Below, piece after piece: positions 19,718-32,411 of a DNA stretch of 64,000 bases. Position numbers and translations under genes: made by a program. The number at the start of each line of letters is the position of its first letter. The first letter of the stretch is position 1. A model generated the notes under the pieces. It worked only from the letters and a program-made list of their open reading frames with translations. It had not been told where the DNA came from and searched no databases. This DNA comes from Candidatus Altiarchaeales archaeon (GTDB lineage Archaea; Altiarchaeota; Altiarchaeia; IMC4; SCGC-AAA252-I15): the NCBI GenBank assembly GCA_014727915.1, contig WJMO01000006.1, positions 320,001 to 384,000 of the forward strand, read 5' to 3'.

Positions 19718-19904
19718 AGCCATCACCTCCAGTAAGGACTTAGGTGACCCATATAAAGAAGATAACGCCAATATAGGGCTAAAATAGGGCTAGAAGTGTG
19801 TGACCGAACGGTTAGTCTGGGTCGGTTGAAATAAAATGGCCGGAAGGTGGTGTAATTGGATGTATCCAATTGAGCATTTGACTTGTCGCCAAAGAGGCGC
19901 AGAG

Positions 19905-22748
<2,844 letters not shown>

Positions 22749-22936
22749 ACTCTACGTCTCTTTTTGGCGAGCCAAATGCTCTATATAATACATCCTATAC
22801 ACCACCTTCCAAAAGAAGAAAGCCAAAAAGAAAATTGGCTAACTTAGCATGAAAGGTTTCTCCACACGCCCGCCTGCGCAGGCATGCTTCAAGCGAAAAA
22901 ATTTTCCACCAAAATGAATTGATGAACGTGATTGTT

Positions 22937-23190: not shown

Positions 23191-23341
23191 TGGACTCGTC
23201 GGGATTTGAACCCGAGGCCTCCCGCGAACTCGGAACCTTTTACGGACACGGAATATTATTTTCCGTGAACGCTTTTACGGCCTGTAGGCCGGAAAAGGGT
23301 TCTTGCAAGGCGGACGATCTACCGGACTGATCTACGAGCCC
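23191..23341 (-). tRNA. tRNA-Ala(TGC) with 77-nt intron at 37/38 (23227-23303)
   Basis: GGGCUCG/CGAGUCC acceptor with G3-U70; UUCAAAU T-loop; canonical BHB (CUUG/CGAG helix, bulges CAA and UUC). Confidence 0.95.
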
Positions 23342-23482
23342 CTGAATAAAGTTTCTTGGATTCACCCCAACGGGTTCCATGAATTTTTTGTGTTCAAGTC
23401 TTTTGCTGGAAGAATTTTAGCCCCTGTGCGCGGAAGGCAAATATTCCGCATTGTAAAAGAAGCAAACACATGTTGGTTTGCT

Positions 23483-24974
23483 TGGAGGTGATCCAGCCGC
23501 AGATTCCCCTACGGCTACCTTGTTACGACTTCACCCCCCTCGCGAACCCGAGATTCGACACACCCGAAAATCGAGTATGCCTCACCTCCAATCCACTCAG
23601 TTGGTGTGACGGGCGGTGTGTGCAAGGAACAGGGACATATTCACCGCTTTATGGTAAAAAGCGATTACTAGGGATTTCACCTTCATGAGGGTGAGTTTCA
23701 ACCCTCAATCCGTACTGGGACATGGTTTAGGGGATTAGCTCCGCCTTTCGGTGTTGCAACCCATTGTCCATGCCATTGTATGCCGCGTGTAGCCCAGACG
23801 ATTCGGAGCATACAGACCTACCGTCGCCCGCGCCTTCCTCACACTCATCGCATGCAGTCCCCCTATAGTGCCCCACAAGTCTCCTCGTGGGTTGCAAATA
23901 GGGGTACGGGTCTCGCTCGTTAACGGACTTAACCGTACGCCTCACGGTACGAGCTGACGACGGCCATGCACTACCTCTCGGCTCGTTCGGCAAGACCTTT
24001 AGCCTGGCCTTCATCCTGCCGTCGCGTCTGGTAAGTTTCCCGGCGTTGTATCCAATTGAACCGCAGCATCCACCCCTTGTGGTGTTCCCCCGCCAATTCC
24101 TTTAAGTTTCAGCCTTGCGACCGTACTCCCCAGGTGGTGGGTTTAACGGTTTCCCTTCAGCACTCCCCGAACACGAGGTTCAGGGAACACTAAACCCACA
24201 TCGTTTACGGCTAGGACTACCAGGGTATCTAATCCTGTTCGCTCCCCTAGCTCTCGTACCTCATCGTCAGGCCCGTTCCAGAGTGGCGCCTTCGCTACCG
24301 GTGGTCCTCCAGGGATTATAGCATTTCACCGCTACCCCCAGAATACCCCACTCCTGCCCCGGCCTCAAGCCCAGTAGTATTTTCTGCAAGCCCTACGGTT
24401 AAGCCGCAGGATTTCACAGAAAACTTGCTGAACCGACTACGCACGCTCTAAACCCAGTAAACGCGATCACCACTTGAGCTGCTGGTGTTACCGCGGAGGC
24501 TGGCACCAGTCTTACCCAGCCCTTATTCCCAGAGCTATTTACACTCTGTAAAAGCACACGTTGTACGTGCGCACTTGGGGTCCCCTCGTCACGCTTGCGC
24601 GCATTGCGAAGGTTTCGCGACTGCTGCGCTCCGTAGAGCCTGGACCTTTGTCTCAGTGTCCATCTCCCGGCTCCCACTCTCATGGCCGGTACAGATCGTA
24701 GCCACGGTAGGCCATTACCCTACCGTCAAACTAATCCGCCGCAGACTCATCCTGAGGCGATGGACCGGATACAGGTCTTCTCCTTTGAGCGGCGGACATT
24801 CCAGTGCTCGCCGCCTATGGGGGATTGTCCTCAGTTTCCCGAGGTTATACCCCTCCCCAGGGCAGATTGTCCACGTGTTACTGAGCTGGTTGCCCGGACC
24901 TTAACCGTGTCCGAAACGTGCATGTCTTAATCAAACCCCAATAGCAGTGACCTCGAGCAGGATCAACTCGAGTT
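23483..24974 (-). rRNA. rrs: 16S rRNA
   Basis: UUGAUCCUG near the 5' end, AAACUUAAAGGAAUUGGCGG, AAGUCGUAACAAGG, anti-SD GAUCACCUCC. Confidence 0.98.
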
Positions 24975-25275
24975 AATGTACGTATCGCTGATTGTTTTTT
25001 GGAATTGTATGGTCTTCCACACACAGGTATAGCTATTTCCAGCGTTTGAACACGTCAGACAGCCCCCATGCAGAGGATGTCATCATAAATTGCCCACACT
25101 AGCATGGATCGGACTCCACGGAAGGTGCAGACGCCCAAACCGCTTCTAGGCCCAACAAAACCAGATGTGAGGCGATTCCAAATCAACACTTTCCCGCATT
25201 TTGCGGGGTTGTCTCATTTAATTGGAAAAACACATTGCGCAAAGGGAATTTCGCGCGGACAATATATAGGCAACC

Positions 25276-25288
25276 TCTATTTATAAAT
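25276..25288 (-). promoter_or_regulatory. Probable TATA box of the rRNA operon
   Basis: TTTATAAATA about 300 nt upstream of the 16S, directly after the upstream stop codon. Confidence 0.5.
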
Positions 25289-25947
25289 CAACTGTAGATG
25301 CCGGATATCGTTCCGCTCGAGGTGAAATCGGCTTTTTTCTGTCCTCCGGCCGTTACCAGGAGTTCTCTGCGCTTTTTGTCCACCATATCATCGATTTTCT
25401 CATCTGAAACGCCCATATTCCGGAAGGACTTGGCCTGGTCCAGGACCTTTGCATAATCAAGGGAACGCTGTGTCGCCGTAGACTCCAGAACGACTTCCAA
25501 CATGAATATCCTTCCCCTCATGTTGAGGTCTGGAGCGCAGTTAGATGCTGATATGTTCTTCCTCTCGCCCGCCCCAAGGTTGAAGGGCGTTTTAGTGATT
25601 AAGTCGCATCTTCCAGAGTCCCGGTTCCAAAGGCTTATTTTCCTCACGGTCGCCGTGTCCAAACCATAGTTGGCAACATTGAATGATAGTCTTCCAGTAT
25701 CGCCGTCTATGGACGGCGAATCCGGAATCAGCACCTTCAGCGACTCTGCCACTTCTTCCTTGGGCTCCATAAGGCCTGAAATGTAGTCGAAGACGCCAAG
25801 CCACCACATAAGTAGGATGAGAGTGACAAAGGTTATGACATAGTCCTTCTTAGAGGGTTGGACGTTCACCGGCAGACTGCCAATGGATCGGCTAGGCTGG
25901 CCTGTTTTATCGTCTGTTTTAGATTCAGCTTCGAGGTCAGGGGACAT
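25288..25947 (-). CDS. Membrane-anchored pilin-like/Ig-fold hypothetical protein
   Basis: TM ending in WWLGVF; C-terminal SSGTISG resembles the pilin C-termini. Confidence 0.6.
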   Translation of the reverse strand: MSPDLEAESKTDDKTGQPSRSIGSLPVNVQPSKKDYVITFVTLILLMWWLGVFDYISGLMEPKEEVAESLKVLIPDSPSIDGDTGRLSFNVANYGLDTATVRKISLWNRDSGRCDLITKTPFNLGAGERKNISASNCAPDLNMRGRIFMLEVVLESTATQRSLDYAKVLDQAKSFRNMGVSDEKIDDMVDKKRRELLVTAGGQKKADFTSSGTISGIYS

Positions 25948-25948
25948 T

Positions 25949-26623
25949 TTAAGTCCAGGTTATGATTCCCGTACTGTGCTCGACAGTCTGAACGTTACCA
26001 ATCTTTAAAACATATTCTATGTCGATGTATGCGCTTCCCGGATGCCCTGAGCTTACATCCAGACATTTGTCATCCAAACCTTCGATGCCGCCGCCGCCAA
26101 CTTTGATAGTGCCCTCCTGGGGGACCTCATAGTCTTCCACGCCATCGCCAGTATGGTCAACGCATTCGAACACTTGTGAGCCGTAGAGCCCACCAGGCGC
26201 GTAGTCACAGTCTACGATGCTACTATCTTGATAGTGGACTATCTTGCCCTTGTCCGTCTCAGCCAGGCCGTAACCGCATTTCAAATCATGTGATGTGGCT
26301 CCGCCGGTGGGGACCTCGGACTCAGGGGACATGCTGACACTGACGTTCTGCACGTACACTTTAGTGTTCAACGTGTTGGTGAATATGCACACCAGCCCCC
26401 TGTCAAGGGACCCGCCGCCCAGGGCGTTCTCGGTTATCCCGCAGGTGGAAAGCAAGGGCTTGAACGCGCCGGTGAAACCGGATTCTGTGAAGTGGCCGCC
26501 GCCGCCGAAGTTGAATATCCCCAGCCGCCACATGGCAATGCCAGCGACCATCACAACGATAATAGCCCAGCCGTAGGTCATCAGGTACTCCATAGCACCC
26601 TGACCCCTCCTATGAGAAAACAT
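25949..26623 (-). CDS. Type IV pilin-like protein (class III signal peptide)
   Basis: RRG/QGAMEYLMTYGWAIIVV; start ATG 26623 below a TTTTATAAG box. Confidence 0.88.
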   Translation of the reverse strand: MFSHRRGQGAMEYLMTYGWAIIVVMVAGIAMWRLGIFNFGGGGHFTESGFTGAFKPLLSTCGITENALGGGSLDRGLVCIFTNTLNTKVYVQNVSVSMSPESEVPTGGATSHDLKCGYGLAETDKGKIVHYQDSSIVDCDYAPGGLYGSQVFECVDHTGDGVEDYEVPQEGTIKVGGGGIEGLDDKCLDVSSGHPGSAYIDIEYVLKIGNVQTVEHSTGIITWT

Positions 26624-26759
26624 GGTAAATACAGTAACATATTGGACGAGAAAGCTTATAAAAACAGGTGGGCCGCGGGGGGCTACCGGCCCCCTCAGTT
26701 CCAAGTTCCTCCTGATCCCCCCGAAACGAATATTGTGCCGCCCAAAGGTGGCACAAATG

Positions 26760-26998
26760 CAGTAACCAGAATGAATCAATGACGATTGGCTAGAAAAAAG
26801 TACAACCAATAATATTGGCCCAGCAAGGGCGAACATACCATGGTGGATAATTGATTCAACCAGACAATTAGATTTGTCAGAAATGCTCGAGCAATATACA
26901 ATGAAGCCTCCAGCGACTCAAGCGATTATTGCTAAGTACCAACTAAATAGGATATGAAAAACCTCTTTTGAGGATAGCCTCTCAAATTTTATATCCAT
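26760..26998 (-). pseudogene. Interrupted AT-rich small membrane-protein ORF downstream of tRNA-His
   Basis: MDIKFERLSSKEVFHILFSWYLAIIA*VAGGFIVY...; the frame continues past TGA 26918-26920. Confidence 0.4.
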
Positions 26999-27067
26999 TT
27001 TGATAGTGCATTCTGGGGGGTCGTAGACCCCCCCATTTCGCTTCGCGTGTCCACGGAGCGAGCCGTG

Positions 27068-27215
27068 GGCCGCGGGCGGAATTTGAATCCGCGTCGCCGG
27101 ATAGCTGCAACCTGTCGTATGCCCGGAATTATTATCTTCCGTCAACGCTTTCGCCCGGAGGGCGGAAGAGGGTTGCCACAGTCCAGTAGGATAACCAGGC
27201 TACCCCACCGCGGCC
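27068..27215 (-). tRNA. tRNA-His(GTG) with encoded G-1 and 73-nt intron at 37/38 (27103-27175)
   Basis: G-1:C73; GCCGCGG/CCGCGGC acceptor; BHB with CUGU/GCAG helix and bulges GGC and CUA. Confidence 0.95.
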
Positions 27216-30394: not shown

Positions 30395-30467
30395 GGGACC
30401 GTGGGGTAGCTTGGTATCCTTCTAGCTTTGGGAGCTAGTGACTCGAGTTCGAATCTCGGCGGTCCCA
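30395..30467 (+). tRNA. tRNA-Pro(TGG), no intron
   Basis: GGGACCG/CGGTCCC acceptor; CTAGC-TT-TGG-GA-GCTAG anticodon arm; TTCGAAT T-loop. Confidence 0.96.
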
Positions 30468-31502: not shown

Positions 31503-32411
31503 TCACCAGTGTTTTCCTATCTTCACCTTCAATAGGTCCTCTGCGACATACGATTCAGGGAACACCTCCCGGGCCTCTTCCAGAAGAGCGTCTGGTTCAG
31601 GGTAGCGTTGGCTTATGTGGGTGAGGTATAGCTTCTTGACCCCTGCCTTCTTAGCTACTTCAGCAGCCTGCCTGGCGGTGGAGTGGGCGGCGTCCTCCGT
31701 GGCCTCCAGGTCAGCGTGACTGAACATGCTCTCGTGTATTAGCAAGTCAGCACCCTCAGCCAATTTTACAACAGCCCTGCAAAGTCTTGTATCGCCCGTG
31801 TAGACGACTTTCCTGCCGTCTATGGGGGGGTCAAGAACCTGCTCTGGAGCTATGGTTTTGCCGTTCACCTCGACCGGATCTCCGTCAGCGAGCTTTGTGA
31901 ACAGCGGACCCACCGGCACTCCCAGGTCGATGGCGGTCTGGCGGTTGAATTTGCGGTGCGGGTCCTCGGTGAAGCAGTAGGCTAGGCTGTTCCTTGTGTG
32001 GTCGGTGTTAGCCGCGGATATGGCATACCTGTCTCCGCGGTACACTTCGCCTGCTCCGACCTCGTGGGTGTCGACGGTGAGATGATCCAGCCGGAAGGTG
32101 CCGACCGTGAGGAGCTTTTCCATCGCGTCCTTCATGCCGGCGGGGCCGTATATGTTGAGGGGCCTCTCCCTTTCAAGGAAGTCCATCGACTGTATCATGC
32201 CGCCGAGGCCGAGGAAGTGGTCTGCGTGGAGGTGTGTGATGAATATGTTGTTGAGGTTCATGAAGTTCAATCCTGCGAATCTCATCTGGCGTTGGGTGCC
32301 CTCGCCGCAGTCGAAGAGCATGTGCTCCCCGAGGTAGTCCAGGTGTATTGAACTCAAGCCCCGCTTGTCTGTTGGTATGCACCCGCTGGTGCCGAGGAAC
32401 GTAACCTCCAT
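31503..32411 (-). CDS. rnz: Ribonuclease Z
   Basis: FLGTS, DCGEGTQ, HLHADH, GDT, HST, THISQRY. Confidence 0.96.
   Translation of the reverse strand: MEVTFLGTSGCIPTDKRGLSSIHLDYLGEHMLFDCGEGTQRQMRFAGLNFMNLNNIFITHLHADHFLGLGGMIQSMDFLERERPLNIYGPAGMKDAMEKLLTVGTFRLDHLTVDTHEVGAGEVYRGDRYAISAANTDHTRNSLAYCFTEDPHRKFNRQTAIDLGVPVGPLFTKLADGDPVEVNGKTIAPEQVLDPPIDGRKVVYTGDTRLCRAVVKLAEGADLLIHESMFSHADLEATEDAAHSTARQAAEVAKKAGVKKLYLTHISQRYPEPDALLEEAREVFPESYVAEDLLKVKIGKHW

Follow-up and report, generated by a model that had tools for sequence, protein, structure and literature searches.

What is the origin of the similar introns that two tRNA genes of different specificity, tRNA-Ala(TGC) and tRNA-His(GTG), carry in a Candidatus Altiarchaeales archaeon? 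The stretch analyzed, hereafter the window, comprises 64,000 nucleotides (contig WJMO01000006.1, positions 320,001 to 384,000), and on its minus strand lies an archaeal rRNA operon whose spacer contains the tRNA-Ala(TGC) gene. An initial annotation of the window had proposed that one RNA element colonized several tRNAs and that its fold is selected as an intron RNA, either selfish or functional as a circle. The first half of that proposal was borne out and the second was not. We hold with moderate confidence that the introns are copies of a duplicative, promoter- or terminator-like DNA repeat, which anticodon loops would tolerate since splicing can remove it. The repeat is not an intron RNA family private to tRNAs, and its hairpin is a feature of the DNA repeat. 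This answer draws on the homology of the introns, their splice motif, the distribution and contexts of further copies, a covarying hairpin and a mirror tract.

The tRNA-Ala(TGC) gene (23191-23341, minus strand; Rfam tRNA score 50.5 bits) and the tRNA-His(GTG) gene (27067-27214, minus strand) are both interrupted at position 37/38. Default ARAGORN misses both genes and both were recovered once introns were allowed, with introns at 23227-23303 (77 nt) and 27103-27175 (73 nt), both on the minus strand, exactly as first annotated. A motif script that required an exon helix of 5 bp, a first bulge of 3 nt, a central helix of 4 bp, a second bulge of 3 nt and finally an outer helix found the bulge-helix-bulge splice motif in its strict form (hBHBh') in both introns; the outer helix is 5 bp in the Ala intron (helices of 5/4/5 bp) and 4 bp in the His intron. 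The 4-nt tail of each intron pairs with the anticodon loop of its own host (CGAG in Ala, GCAG in His), so the separate matching of each tail to its host that had been pointed out earlier was found again. In a MAFFT alignment, 52 of 78 columns are identical between the two introns. Their local alignment score was 53 against a mean of 12.5 (sd 2.1) for shuffled sequences, and none of 2,000 shuffles reached 53 (z about 19), which confirms the homology.

Two covariance models were used to place these introns in a family. R1 was built from the Ala core alone and misses a second subfamily unless filters are off; for this reason R2 was built from 37 copies with 9 base pairs. The Ala intron (R1 94 bits, R2 52.8 bits) consists of one repeat copy and a 3' splice module. 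Its core hairpin (23267-23302, minus strand; fold of -16.4 kcal/mol) has a 4-bp foot GAAC/GTTC, a C.C mismatch, a stem CTTTT/AAAAG and a GC-rich apex, and its pairing is backed by the covariation described below. A second hairpin, ACGGAA...TTCCGT with an A/T-rich loop (23248-23266, minus strand), begins with bases that are part of a conserved ACGGAAAA block, and the intron-specific 3' module (23227-23247, minus strand; motif script) comprises a strand, GGTTC, for pairing with the first bases of the intron, the tail CGAG and a bulge of 2 nt. The His intron is a second copy of the repeat (R1 35.1 bits, R2 39.4 bits); folded individually, it has a core hairpin with foot CAAC/GTTG and a GC-rich apex (27143-27175, minus strand) and a second hairpin CGGAA...TTCCG (27124-27141, minus strand). 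The compensatory change in hairpin 1, the AAAGCGTT linker and hairpin 2 that had been noted previously are all present. As the initial annotation had stated, neither intron has C/D boxes, and no snoRNA match came near threshold. The Rfam scan of the window returned only tRNA and rRNA at gathering score, and at E <= 10 nothing in the introns came within 20 bits of a gathering score, so that no described family matches them.

The same repeat was found elsewhere in this genome (G000; 1.81 Mb in 13 contigs, 90.6% complete). ARAGORN with introns allowed found 34 tRNAs, and 10 of their introns carry the element; these 10 are also the best R2 matches in the genome (E <= 4.7e-6). Subfamily 1 comprises the introns of Ala, His, Asn, Gly-TCC and Thr-GGT, with pairwise scores of 32-54 among the Ala, His, Asn and Gly introns. 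Subfamily 2 comprises those of Glu, Arg-TCT, two CAT tRNAs and Trp. Here, the introns of unrelated tRNAs are near-identical over their first ~55 nt (pairwise scores of 91-96 for Glu, Arg-TCT and Met). Scores between the subfamilies were 10-27. The strict hBHBh' motif was present at canonical position 37/38 in all 10 element introns, with anticodons read correctly from the loop, and no non-canonical intron position occurred among them, unlike the transposed introns of Thermoproteales. Two ARAGORN mislabels were corrected: a CAT tRNA called Ser-CGA and the tRNA-Trp(CCA) called Arg-CCT. The 190-nt intron of the latter gene (L007, G000:C11:99288-99551) opens with an element copy and continues for ~120 nt, including a GATGA stretch; it matched no Rfam snoRNA family.

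Weaker copies in this genome, sought with nhmmer, a motif scan and the two covariance models, all adjoin tRNAs or follow a gene end. One lies between the whole tRNA-Ala(GGC) gene and a duplicated 21-nt piece of it (a 6-nt leader and the first 15 nt of the tRNA), a second occupies the Gly-Gln spacer, a third precedes a 12-nt fragment of tRNA-Gly and a fourth follows a stop codon on contig 12, and a degenerate copy lies 3' of tRNA-Lys. A role of the element as a general promoter of this genome was considered and rejected, as there are no copies away from tRNAs and gene ends and the region upstream of the rRNA operon is without one. Further short repeats were observed among the tRNA flanks of this genome, for example, upstream of the tRNA genes at C11:99288, C11:32631 and C3:227118; one is a hairpin GTCGGAGTTAGCCGAC that recurs beside partial tRNA 5' pieces, and another is a motif ACGGCTCGCTCCGT 3' of several tRNAs, including tRNA-His in the window (27000-27066).

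Beyond this genome, the element is found throughout the class. R1 gave matches in 18 of 80 other genomes. R2 gave matches in 53 of the 60 other genomes of the class (E <= 0.001), some 497 in all (150 listed and 347 more) and at most 37 per genome, although these counts are not copy numbers because the palindrome can also score on the other strand. In the relatives, tRNAs for Leu, Gly, Met, Gln, Asp, Asn, Glu, Cys, Ser, Val and Thr are among the hosts of element introns. The earlier claim that one element colonized several tRNAs thus stands, with 10 intron copies in this genome and further tRNA types in relatives, and the covariance search for additional copies was positive in both places. In the control phylum, 31 of 38 genomes had no match, and family f10 of the other phylum had 9-11 matches in each of its two genomes (G061, G102), where presence could stem from transfer or shared viruses. 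Viral contigs were screened with a 17-nt pattern, which gave 25 viral matches (about the number expected by chance on a rough estimate), and R1 kept 3 of these (E <= 1); one further locus was added. By R2 (E <= 0.01), 4 of 26 candidate viral contigs carry minimal forms of the element. On a contig with terminase and portal genes, the minimal form has the apex TTTAAAAAA, and 8 nt separate its end from the ATG of an open reading frame (ORF) of 55 aa that follows. The 20-nt motif of subfamily 2 was absent from the viral contigs.

Every R2 match of five relatives and the R1 loci were fetched and read. Of the 25 matches in G011, 13 lie in tRNA introns. The single-contig, complete 1.39-Mb genome G026 has 15 matches and G053 has 6, none of them in a tRNA intron; G023 has 23, with 4 in tRNA introns and 2 in its 16S gene, and G022 has 12, with 5 in tRNA introns (one assigned by eye). 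The curated tally of 113 copies comprised 42 in tRNA introns, 65 outside introns, 2 in rRNA and 4 of unknown context, and its intron share is biased since the first 21 copies came from the intron-built model. With 65 of 113 curated copies outside introns, the element is not confined to them.

The copies outside introns fall into several arrangements. Some are flush with a mature tRNA 3' end and others lie ~20-75 nt upstream of a tRNA. A third group lies directly upstream of protein genes, and in several of these the ATG follows 0-5 nt past the element's purine tract; some of the genes, recognized by eye, have N-termini that resemble those of aIF5B, ATP synthase subunit D, Nop10 and KaiC/RadA. 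A fourth group lies between a 5' gene piece and the whole gene, and in a fifth a 5' gene piece and the element are repeated together in tandem. In the array at L195 (G021:C185:2000-3200), at least 6 units follow one another every ~132 nt, each unit consisting of a 35-nt tRNA 5' piece, the element and an A/T-rich tail, in two alternating variants; L199 and L222 are alike. An ATG ORF in the same orientation starts within ~80 nt downstream in 18 of 30 non-intron copies, and a divergent ORF is present in 5 of 30.

Many of these copies are accompanied by duplicated flanks. Leaving aside copies flush with a tRNA 3' end, 17 of 30 have the 24-60 nt on the 5' side of the element repeated 0-144 nt downstream (<=20% mismatch), and this applies to tRNAs as well as to protein genes. 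The length of the duplicated flank ranges from 16 to 60 nt, so there is no target duplication of fixed length. Scars at protein genes were seen in L169 (G011), L186 (G026), L207 (G023) and L220 (G053), each consisting of a diverged 17-70-nt copy of the gene's 5' end, the element and the whole gene. In the 16S gene of G023 (L201, G023:C5:1948-3638, approximately 221-366), a ~150-nt insertion is made of two inverted element copies, and Rfam aligns 843 model positions over 995 nt. The same operon has a tRNA-Ala with an element intron and a further copy flush with the 3' end of that tRNA.

The core of the repeat is non-coding and ~55-65 bp long. In order, it contains a 4-bp foot (N-R-R-C / G-Y-Y-N'), one mismatch, T-rich and A-rich arms, a variable apex, a linker and a purine tract. 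The mismatch is conserved as C.C in the common type and C.T in the other, and the 8-nt linker reads CGTTSACG in the common type; AAAGCGTT and ACGGAAAA are near-invariant across families. When the 37 aligned copies were folded singly, all had the same hairpin architecture (22-42 nt). Because MAFFT does not align the variable apex or the second hairpin correctly, pairs were counted for the foot and proximal stem only. Over the reliably aligned columns, 99.1% of cells were paired, and 6 of the 9 pairs had changes on both sides, in 28 cells. None of 500 shuffles reached the observed value on four of five covariation measures, and pairing dropped to 45-65% when the partner was slid by 1-3 columns. 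The covariation of the hairpin anticipated in the initial annotation thus holds against shuffled controls over these 9 base pairs. The same covarying hairpin is present in the non-intron copies, which argues that the covariation belongs to the DNA repeat rather than to an intron RNA.

The purine tract repeats the part of the A-rich arm next to the foot in reversed order, without complementing it. The mirror is perfect in 33 of the 45 copies with a purine arm (e.g. L016, L031, L165 and L183). Mean mirror identity was 0.955, compared to 0.837 when the tract was read as a direct repeat and 0.853±0.011 when the arms were dealt among copies, and none of 2,000 permutations reached the observed value. 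In the window, the mirror is weak (23255-23266). We know of no copying mechanism that makes a mirror image; since no known copying route yields one, the mirror tract was taken to be selected. The single rationale that we can offer is that it may form an intramolecular triple helix, with a predicted purine motif on the tRNA-sense strand and a pyrimidine motif on the other.

Intron copies differ from the rest by three additions: the strand of a second hairpin, another strand able to pair with the first bases of the intron, and 4 nt complementary to the anticodon loop of the host. Together, these form the splice motif. The intron's first bases pair either with the 3' strand, for splicing, or with their partner in the foot, and the two folds compete. 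The outer helix is A/U-rich and 1-12 bp long in the element introns of G000. In relatives, 27 of 35 introns of at least 40 nt passed the strict hBHBh' script and 8 gave no clear outcome. A GC-rich apex was found in 14 of 39 parsed intron copies compared to 1 of 62 non-intron copies (Fisher's exact p of 3e-6, which is overstated since the copies are kin). Both introns of the window belong to this GC-rich-apex subfamily, which has T-runs of 2-4 (4 in the Ala intron and 2 in the His intron), no A/T apex and 5-6 nt of the mirror tract left. We infer that this subfamily has specialized in residence within tRNA genes, and its copies probably move between introns.

The presence of the element also changes between close relatives. 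The spacer tRNA-Ala(TGC) is intron-less in G001, which belongs to the same genus, and has the element in G000 and G002. In tRNA-His, the intron is the element in G000 and G002, but an unrelated one of 21 nt in G001 and one of 20 nt in G004. The tRNA-Ala(GGC) gene is intron-less in G007, has unrelated introns of 28 nt (G000) and 39 nt (G004) and has element-type introns of 60 nt (G001) and 48 nt (G011). As orthologues differ within a genus, gains and losses must be recent.

The genome encodes one EndA (170-178 aa; PF01974, 109.5 bits), which by its length we take to be a homotetrameric (alpha4-like) enzyme of the strict-substrate type, and one RtcB (572 bits). The nearest homologues of the EndA bear names that assign them to Candidatus Altiarchaeota or Altiarchaeales. 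Candidate mobility genes were sought as well. Neither RVT_1 nor Y1_Tnp was found in the 90.6%-complete genome, other transposase families not being searched. Two tyrosine-integrase genes (G000:C4:3382-3873 and G000:C3:114464-114943) each lie beside a tRNA, namely tRNA-Asp and a tRNA-Glu with an element intron. Three known routes of movement were tried and rejected. IS200/IS605-like insertion next to TTAC fails because only tRNA-Asn has a TTAC junction and there is no Y1 transposase; retro-mobility fails for want of an RVT_1 domain; and in an integron attC-like site, judged by the attC consensus, only the AAC...GTT foot is similar and the flanking bases are not.

Taken together, these results suggest the following course. 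The repeat would have multiplied across the class by spread at the DNA level, often with 24-60 nt of the abutting gene end being duplicated. Flush with a tRNA 3' end, its T-run is placed like an archaeal terminator, and its A/T-rich apex and arm, 0-80 nt upstream of the starts of tRNA or protein genes and in the same orientation, are placed like a TATA region; by these positions, the element may serve as either signal. A copy in an anticodon loop would become harmless once its 3' module pairs with its own first bases and the host's anticodon loop. The resulting bulge-helix-bulge could be removed by the single alpha4-like EndA and RtcB. In the GC-rich-apex subfamily, T-run, A/T apex and mirror tract would then have largely disappeared, and no separate function of the excised RNA would be required.

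Several points weigh against this course. The terminator and promoter roles are read from position, the apex is not a consensus TATA box in many copies and 12 of the 30 non-intron copies have no nearby ORF start. The contexts depend on ARAGORN and reading by eye, and one relative with 22 matches in a fragmented assembly (G039) was left out; match numbers, as said above, are not copy numbers. No fresh insertion with identical flanks was caught among the loci read, and the presence and absence differences between orthologues might be losses. The search for RVT_1 and Y1_Tnp identified neither a partner transposase nor another agent of spread. The element ends exactly where the intron does, on both sides, and the intron copies have in common a 3' module of their own, which would also fit spread at the RNA level. 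On the tRNA-sense strand, there are 9 G.U pairs versus 2 A.C mismatches, a weak hint of selection at the RNA level or on a single strand. Lastly, the near-invariant AAAGCGTT and ACGGAAAA, the conserved C.C mismatch and the exactness of the mirror speak for a specific structure or binding partner left unnamed in this reading.

Two other explanations concern how the intron copies act. In one, a copy with a T/A-rich stem acts as terminator and promoter at once, the tRNA halves are transcribed apart and EndA and RtcB join them in trans. The 5' half would end in the T-run, a new start would lie at the end of the purine tract and the halves would pair through the intron's first bases and the 3' module. 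Genes start 0-40 nt after the purine tract in non-intron copies, the same point in intron copies lies ~25-29 nt before the 3' splice site, close to the 20-25 nt reported for Aeropyrum pernix, and the 5' strand and 3' module are able to pair over 4-12 bp. We nevertheless judge this unlikely, as the pairing stem is short and A/U-rich compared to 14 G/C-rich bp in A. pernix. Moreover, the introns of the window have GC-rich apexes, T-runs of 4 and 2 and no TATA-like apex, and the one A/T-rich stretch that they have is 26 nt away from the 3' splice site, so that no leader for pairing would be left. The A/T-rich loop of hairpin 2 was separately tried as a TATA box feeding a split gene and rejected, as the start would fall ~22-24 nt downstream, at the 3' splice site itself. 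It is doubtful that a portable cassette of hairpin and mirror triplex splits a tRNA gene into two adjacent transcription units joined in trans. If true, the cassette would be the agent that creates split tRNA genes, and a living intermediate between intron-containing and split genes would exist in at least 10 tRNAs per genome. The other explanation, that the excised intron, probably a circle, is a structured non-coding RNA with a selected fold, is the one the initial annotation had offered as the alternative to a selfish element, from two members and with the non-intron copies unseen. We find it improbable. A three-helix fold is predicted for most intron copies, the second hairpin and 3' module are kept only in intron copies, sequence is conserved across families and G.U exceeds A.C by 9 to 2. 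Yet the covarying hairpin and linker are common to the 65 of 113 copies outside introns, and the intron-only features are needed for the splice motif anyway. Orthologous tRNAs in the same genus are intron-less or have an unrelated 21-nt intron, the relative G026 has 15 matches and no intron copy, and there is neither an Rfam match nor a C/D box.

The remaining alternatives concern history. The family might have begun as a mobile tRNA intron, with the non-intron copies as recombination debris of intron-bearing tRNAs; many of these copies are indeed flanked by tRNA fragments, and integrase genes lie beside two tRNA genes. There is little probability in this order of events, for the tRNA fragments that adjoin the element stop in the D arm or at the mature 3' end and not at 37/38, protein genes show this pattern too, and the intron-specific 3' module is missing from the non-intron copies. 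Furthermore, relatives in other families and the viral contigs have non-intron forms only. It is very improbable that the element is not mobile at all, that is, a lineage-wide regulatory motif descending vertically at each site, with its copies alike through common function. Copies do sit at regulatory positions, and the copy in the Gly-Gln spacer of G000 also occurs upstream of tRNA-Gln in G017. Against vertical descent stand the differences in presence between same-genus orthologues, the near-identical copies in unrelated tRNAs of one genome, the tandem arrays and target duplications and the copies in viral contigs and a second phylum. The duplicative DNA repeat is thus the reading that we keep.

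At the rRNA locus of the window, the 16S rRNA gene (23483-24973, minus strand; Rfam SSU_rRNA_archaea, model positions 1-1478) is without insertion here, and the 23S rRNA gene lies at 19896-22758 (minus strand; Rfam LSU_rRNA_archaea). An RNase Z-like gene (Lactamase_B_2 and tRNase Z N-terminal domain; 31503-32411, minus strand) is located ~1 kb from a tRNA-Pro (30395-30467). The sequencing runs found by search matched only 10-14% of the sampled words. In four metatranscriptomes, reads cover the 16S gene only. A low-depth contig of run X6 joins 23225 to 23304, which is the intron-less form of tRNA-Ala, and any relative with an intron-less gene could be its source.

The repeat can be set beside several known systems. 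Homopurine mirror repeats form H-DNA, or intramolecular triplexes. Like these, the element has a purine arm, a spacer and an exact mirror next to a complementary pyrimidine arm, and its triplex is a prediction. We know of no report of a mirror-triplex motif as a repeat family or in tRNA introns, although no literature search was made for one. An exact mirror tract was unexpected, and it offers a clean target for biophysics. The archaeal tRNA-Trp intron is a box C/D guide, long and structured, at 37/38. The introns described here are also long, structured and at 37/38, and the tRNA-Trp intron of G000 (190 nt) itself starts with an element copy; the difference is that the Ala and His introns are without C/D boxes or a snoRNA match near threshold.

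A parallel to the split-gene possibility is the tRNA-Asp of A. pernix, for which the part of the report available to us describes adjacent split genes with promoter-like signals in the intervening sequence, a predicted start 20-25 nt before its 3' end, separate halves on northern blots and a 14-bp G/C stem. Both systems have an intervening sequence at 37/38 and a canonical hBHBh', and ours would be promoter-like by analogy with the non-intron copies. In A. pernix, it is a single tRNA whose split was shown by northern blot, whereas here a cassette with short A/U-rich stems is repeated in at least 10 tRNAs per genome and is known from its sequence.

The problem to which these data speak is how tRNA introns arrive. 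According to the accessible portion of a 2026 census of Asgard archaea, tRNA introns were gained repeatedly there, and no arrival route is given in that portion (10.64898/2026.10.13.758758); copying between tRNAs appears to be accepted only for Thermoproteales (10.64898/2026.10.13.758758; PMC4090602, as far as the accessible text goes). Among the literature matches listed, judged by title or abstract, none dealt with tRNA introns of Altiarchaeota. In our lineage, a donor of the introns can be named: a class-wide DNA repeat inside and outside tRNA genes, with an intron-adapted subfamily. With presence and absence varying within a genus, intron gain becomes testable in one lineage. The repeat also joins intron families, tRNA-fragment scars and promoter-bearing intervening sequences, which have so far been treated apart. 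What appears new is the lineage, one small repeat linking these phenomena, the intron-adapted subfamily and the mirror tract; the supplementary lists of MITEs (miniature transposable elements with inverted repeats) in PMC11602168 were not compared.

In Thermoproteales, highly similar introns occur in different tRNA types of one genome (Fujishima et al. 2010, as cited in PMC4090602; 10.64898/2026.10.13.758758), and the available passages of PMC4090602 and 10.64898/2026.10.13.758758 describe intron gain there as thought to occur at the DNA level, with the bulge-helix-bulge motif deciding survival. Our genome, too, has introns that resemble each other closely in tRNAs of different types. Our case differs in that the lineage is another, all intron copies of G000 are at 37/38 and there is a single short EndA; the element is mostly outside introns, also at protein genes, in a 16S gene and on viral contigs; and its anatomy of hairpin, linker and mirror is defined here. 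In Caldiarchaeum subterraneum, a 5' fragment of tRNA-Thr lies upstream of the whole gene, with a 1.8-kb recombinase-encoding mobile element between them and an associated intron gain (PMC3293823, Sugahara et al. 2012, in the part accessible). This arrangement of 5' tRNA fragment, mobile sequence and whole gene, and the link of intron gain to a mobile element, resemble ours, although the intervening unit here is ~60-130 bp, non-coding and multi-copy.

Finally, the repeat can be compared with MITEs and 'mobile promoters'. In the accessible part of PMC11602168, Candidatus Altiarchaeum hamiconexum ranked highest among archaea for conserved MITE density, and the excerpt available of PMC3575422 describes 'mobile promoters', similar promoter-like sequences before unrelated genes, a placement that copies of the element have as well. 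Like the MITEs of PMC11602168, as that part describes them, the element is a short, non-coding, multi-copy palindromic intergenic repeat common to hosts and viruses. Unlike them, it produces no target duplication of fixed length, and the search for RVT_1 and Y1_Tnp found no partner transposase for it. Its inverted arms abut as one hairpin with no internal segment, and it has a mirror tract and is used as tRNA introns.

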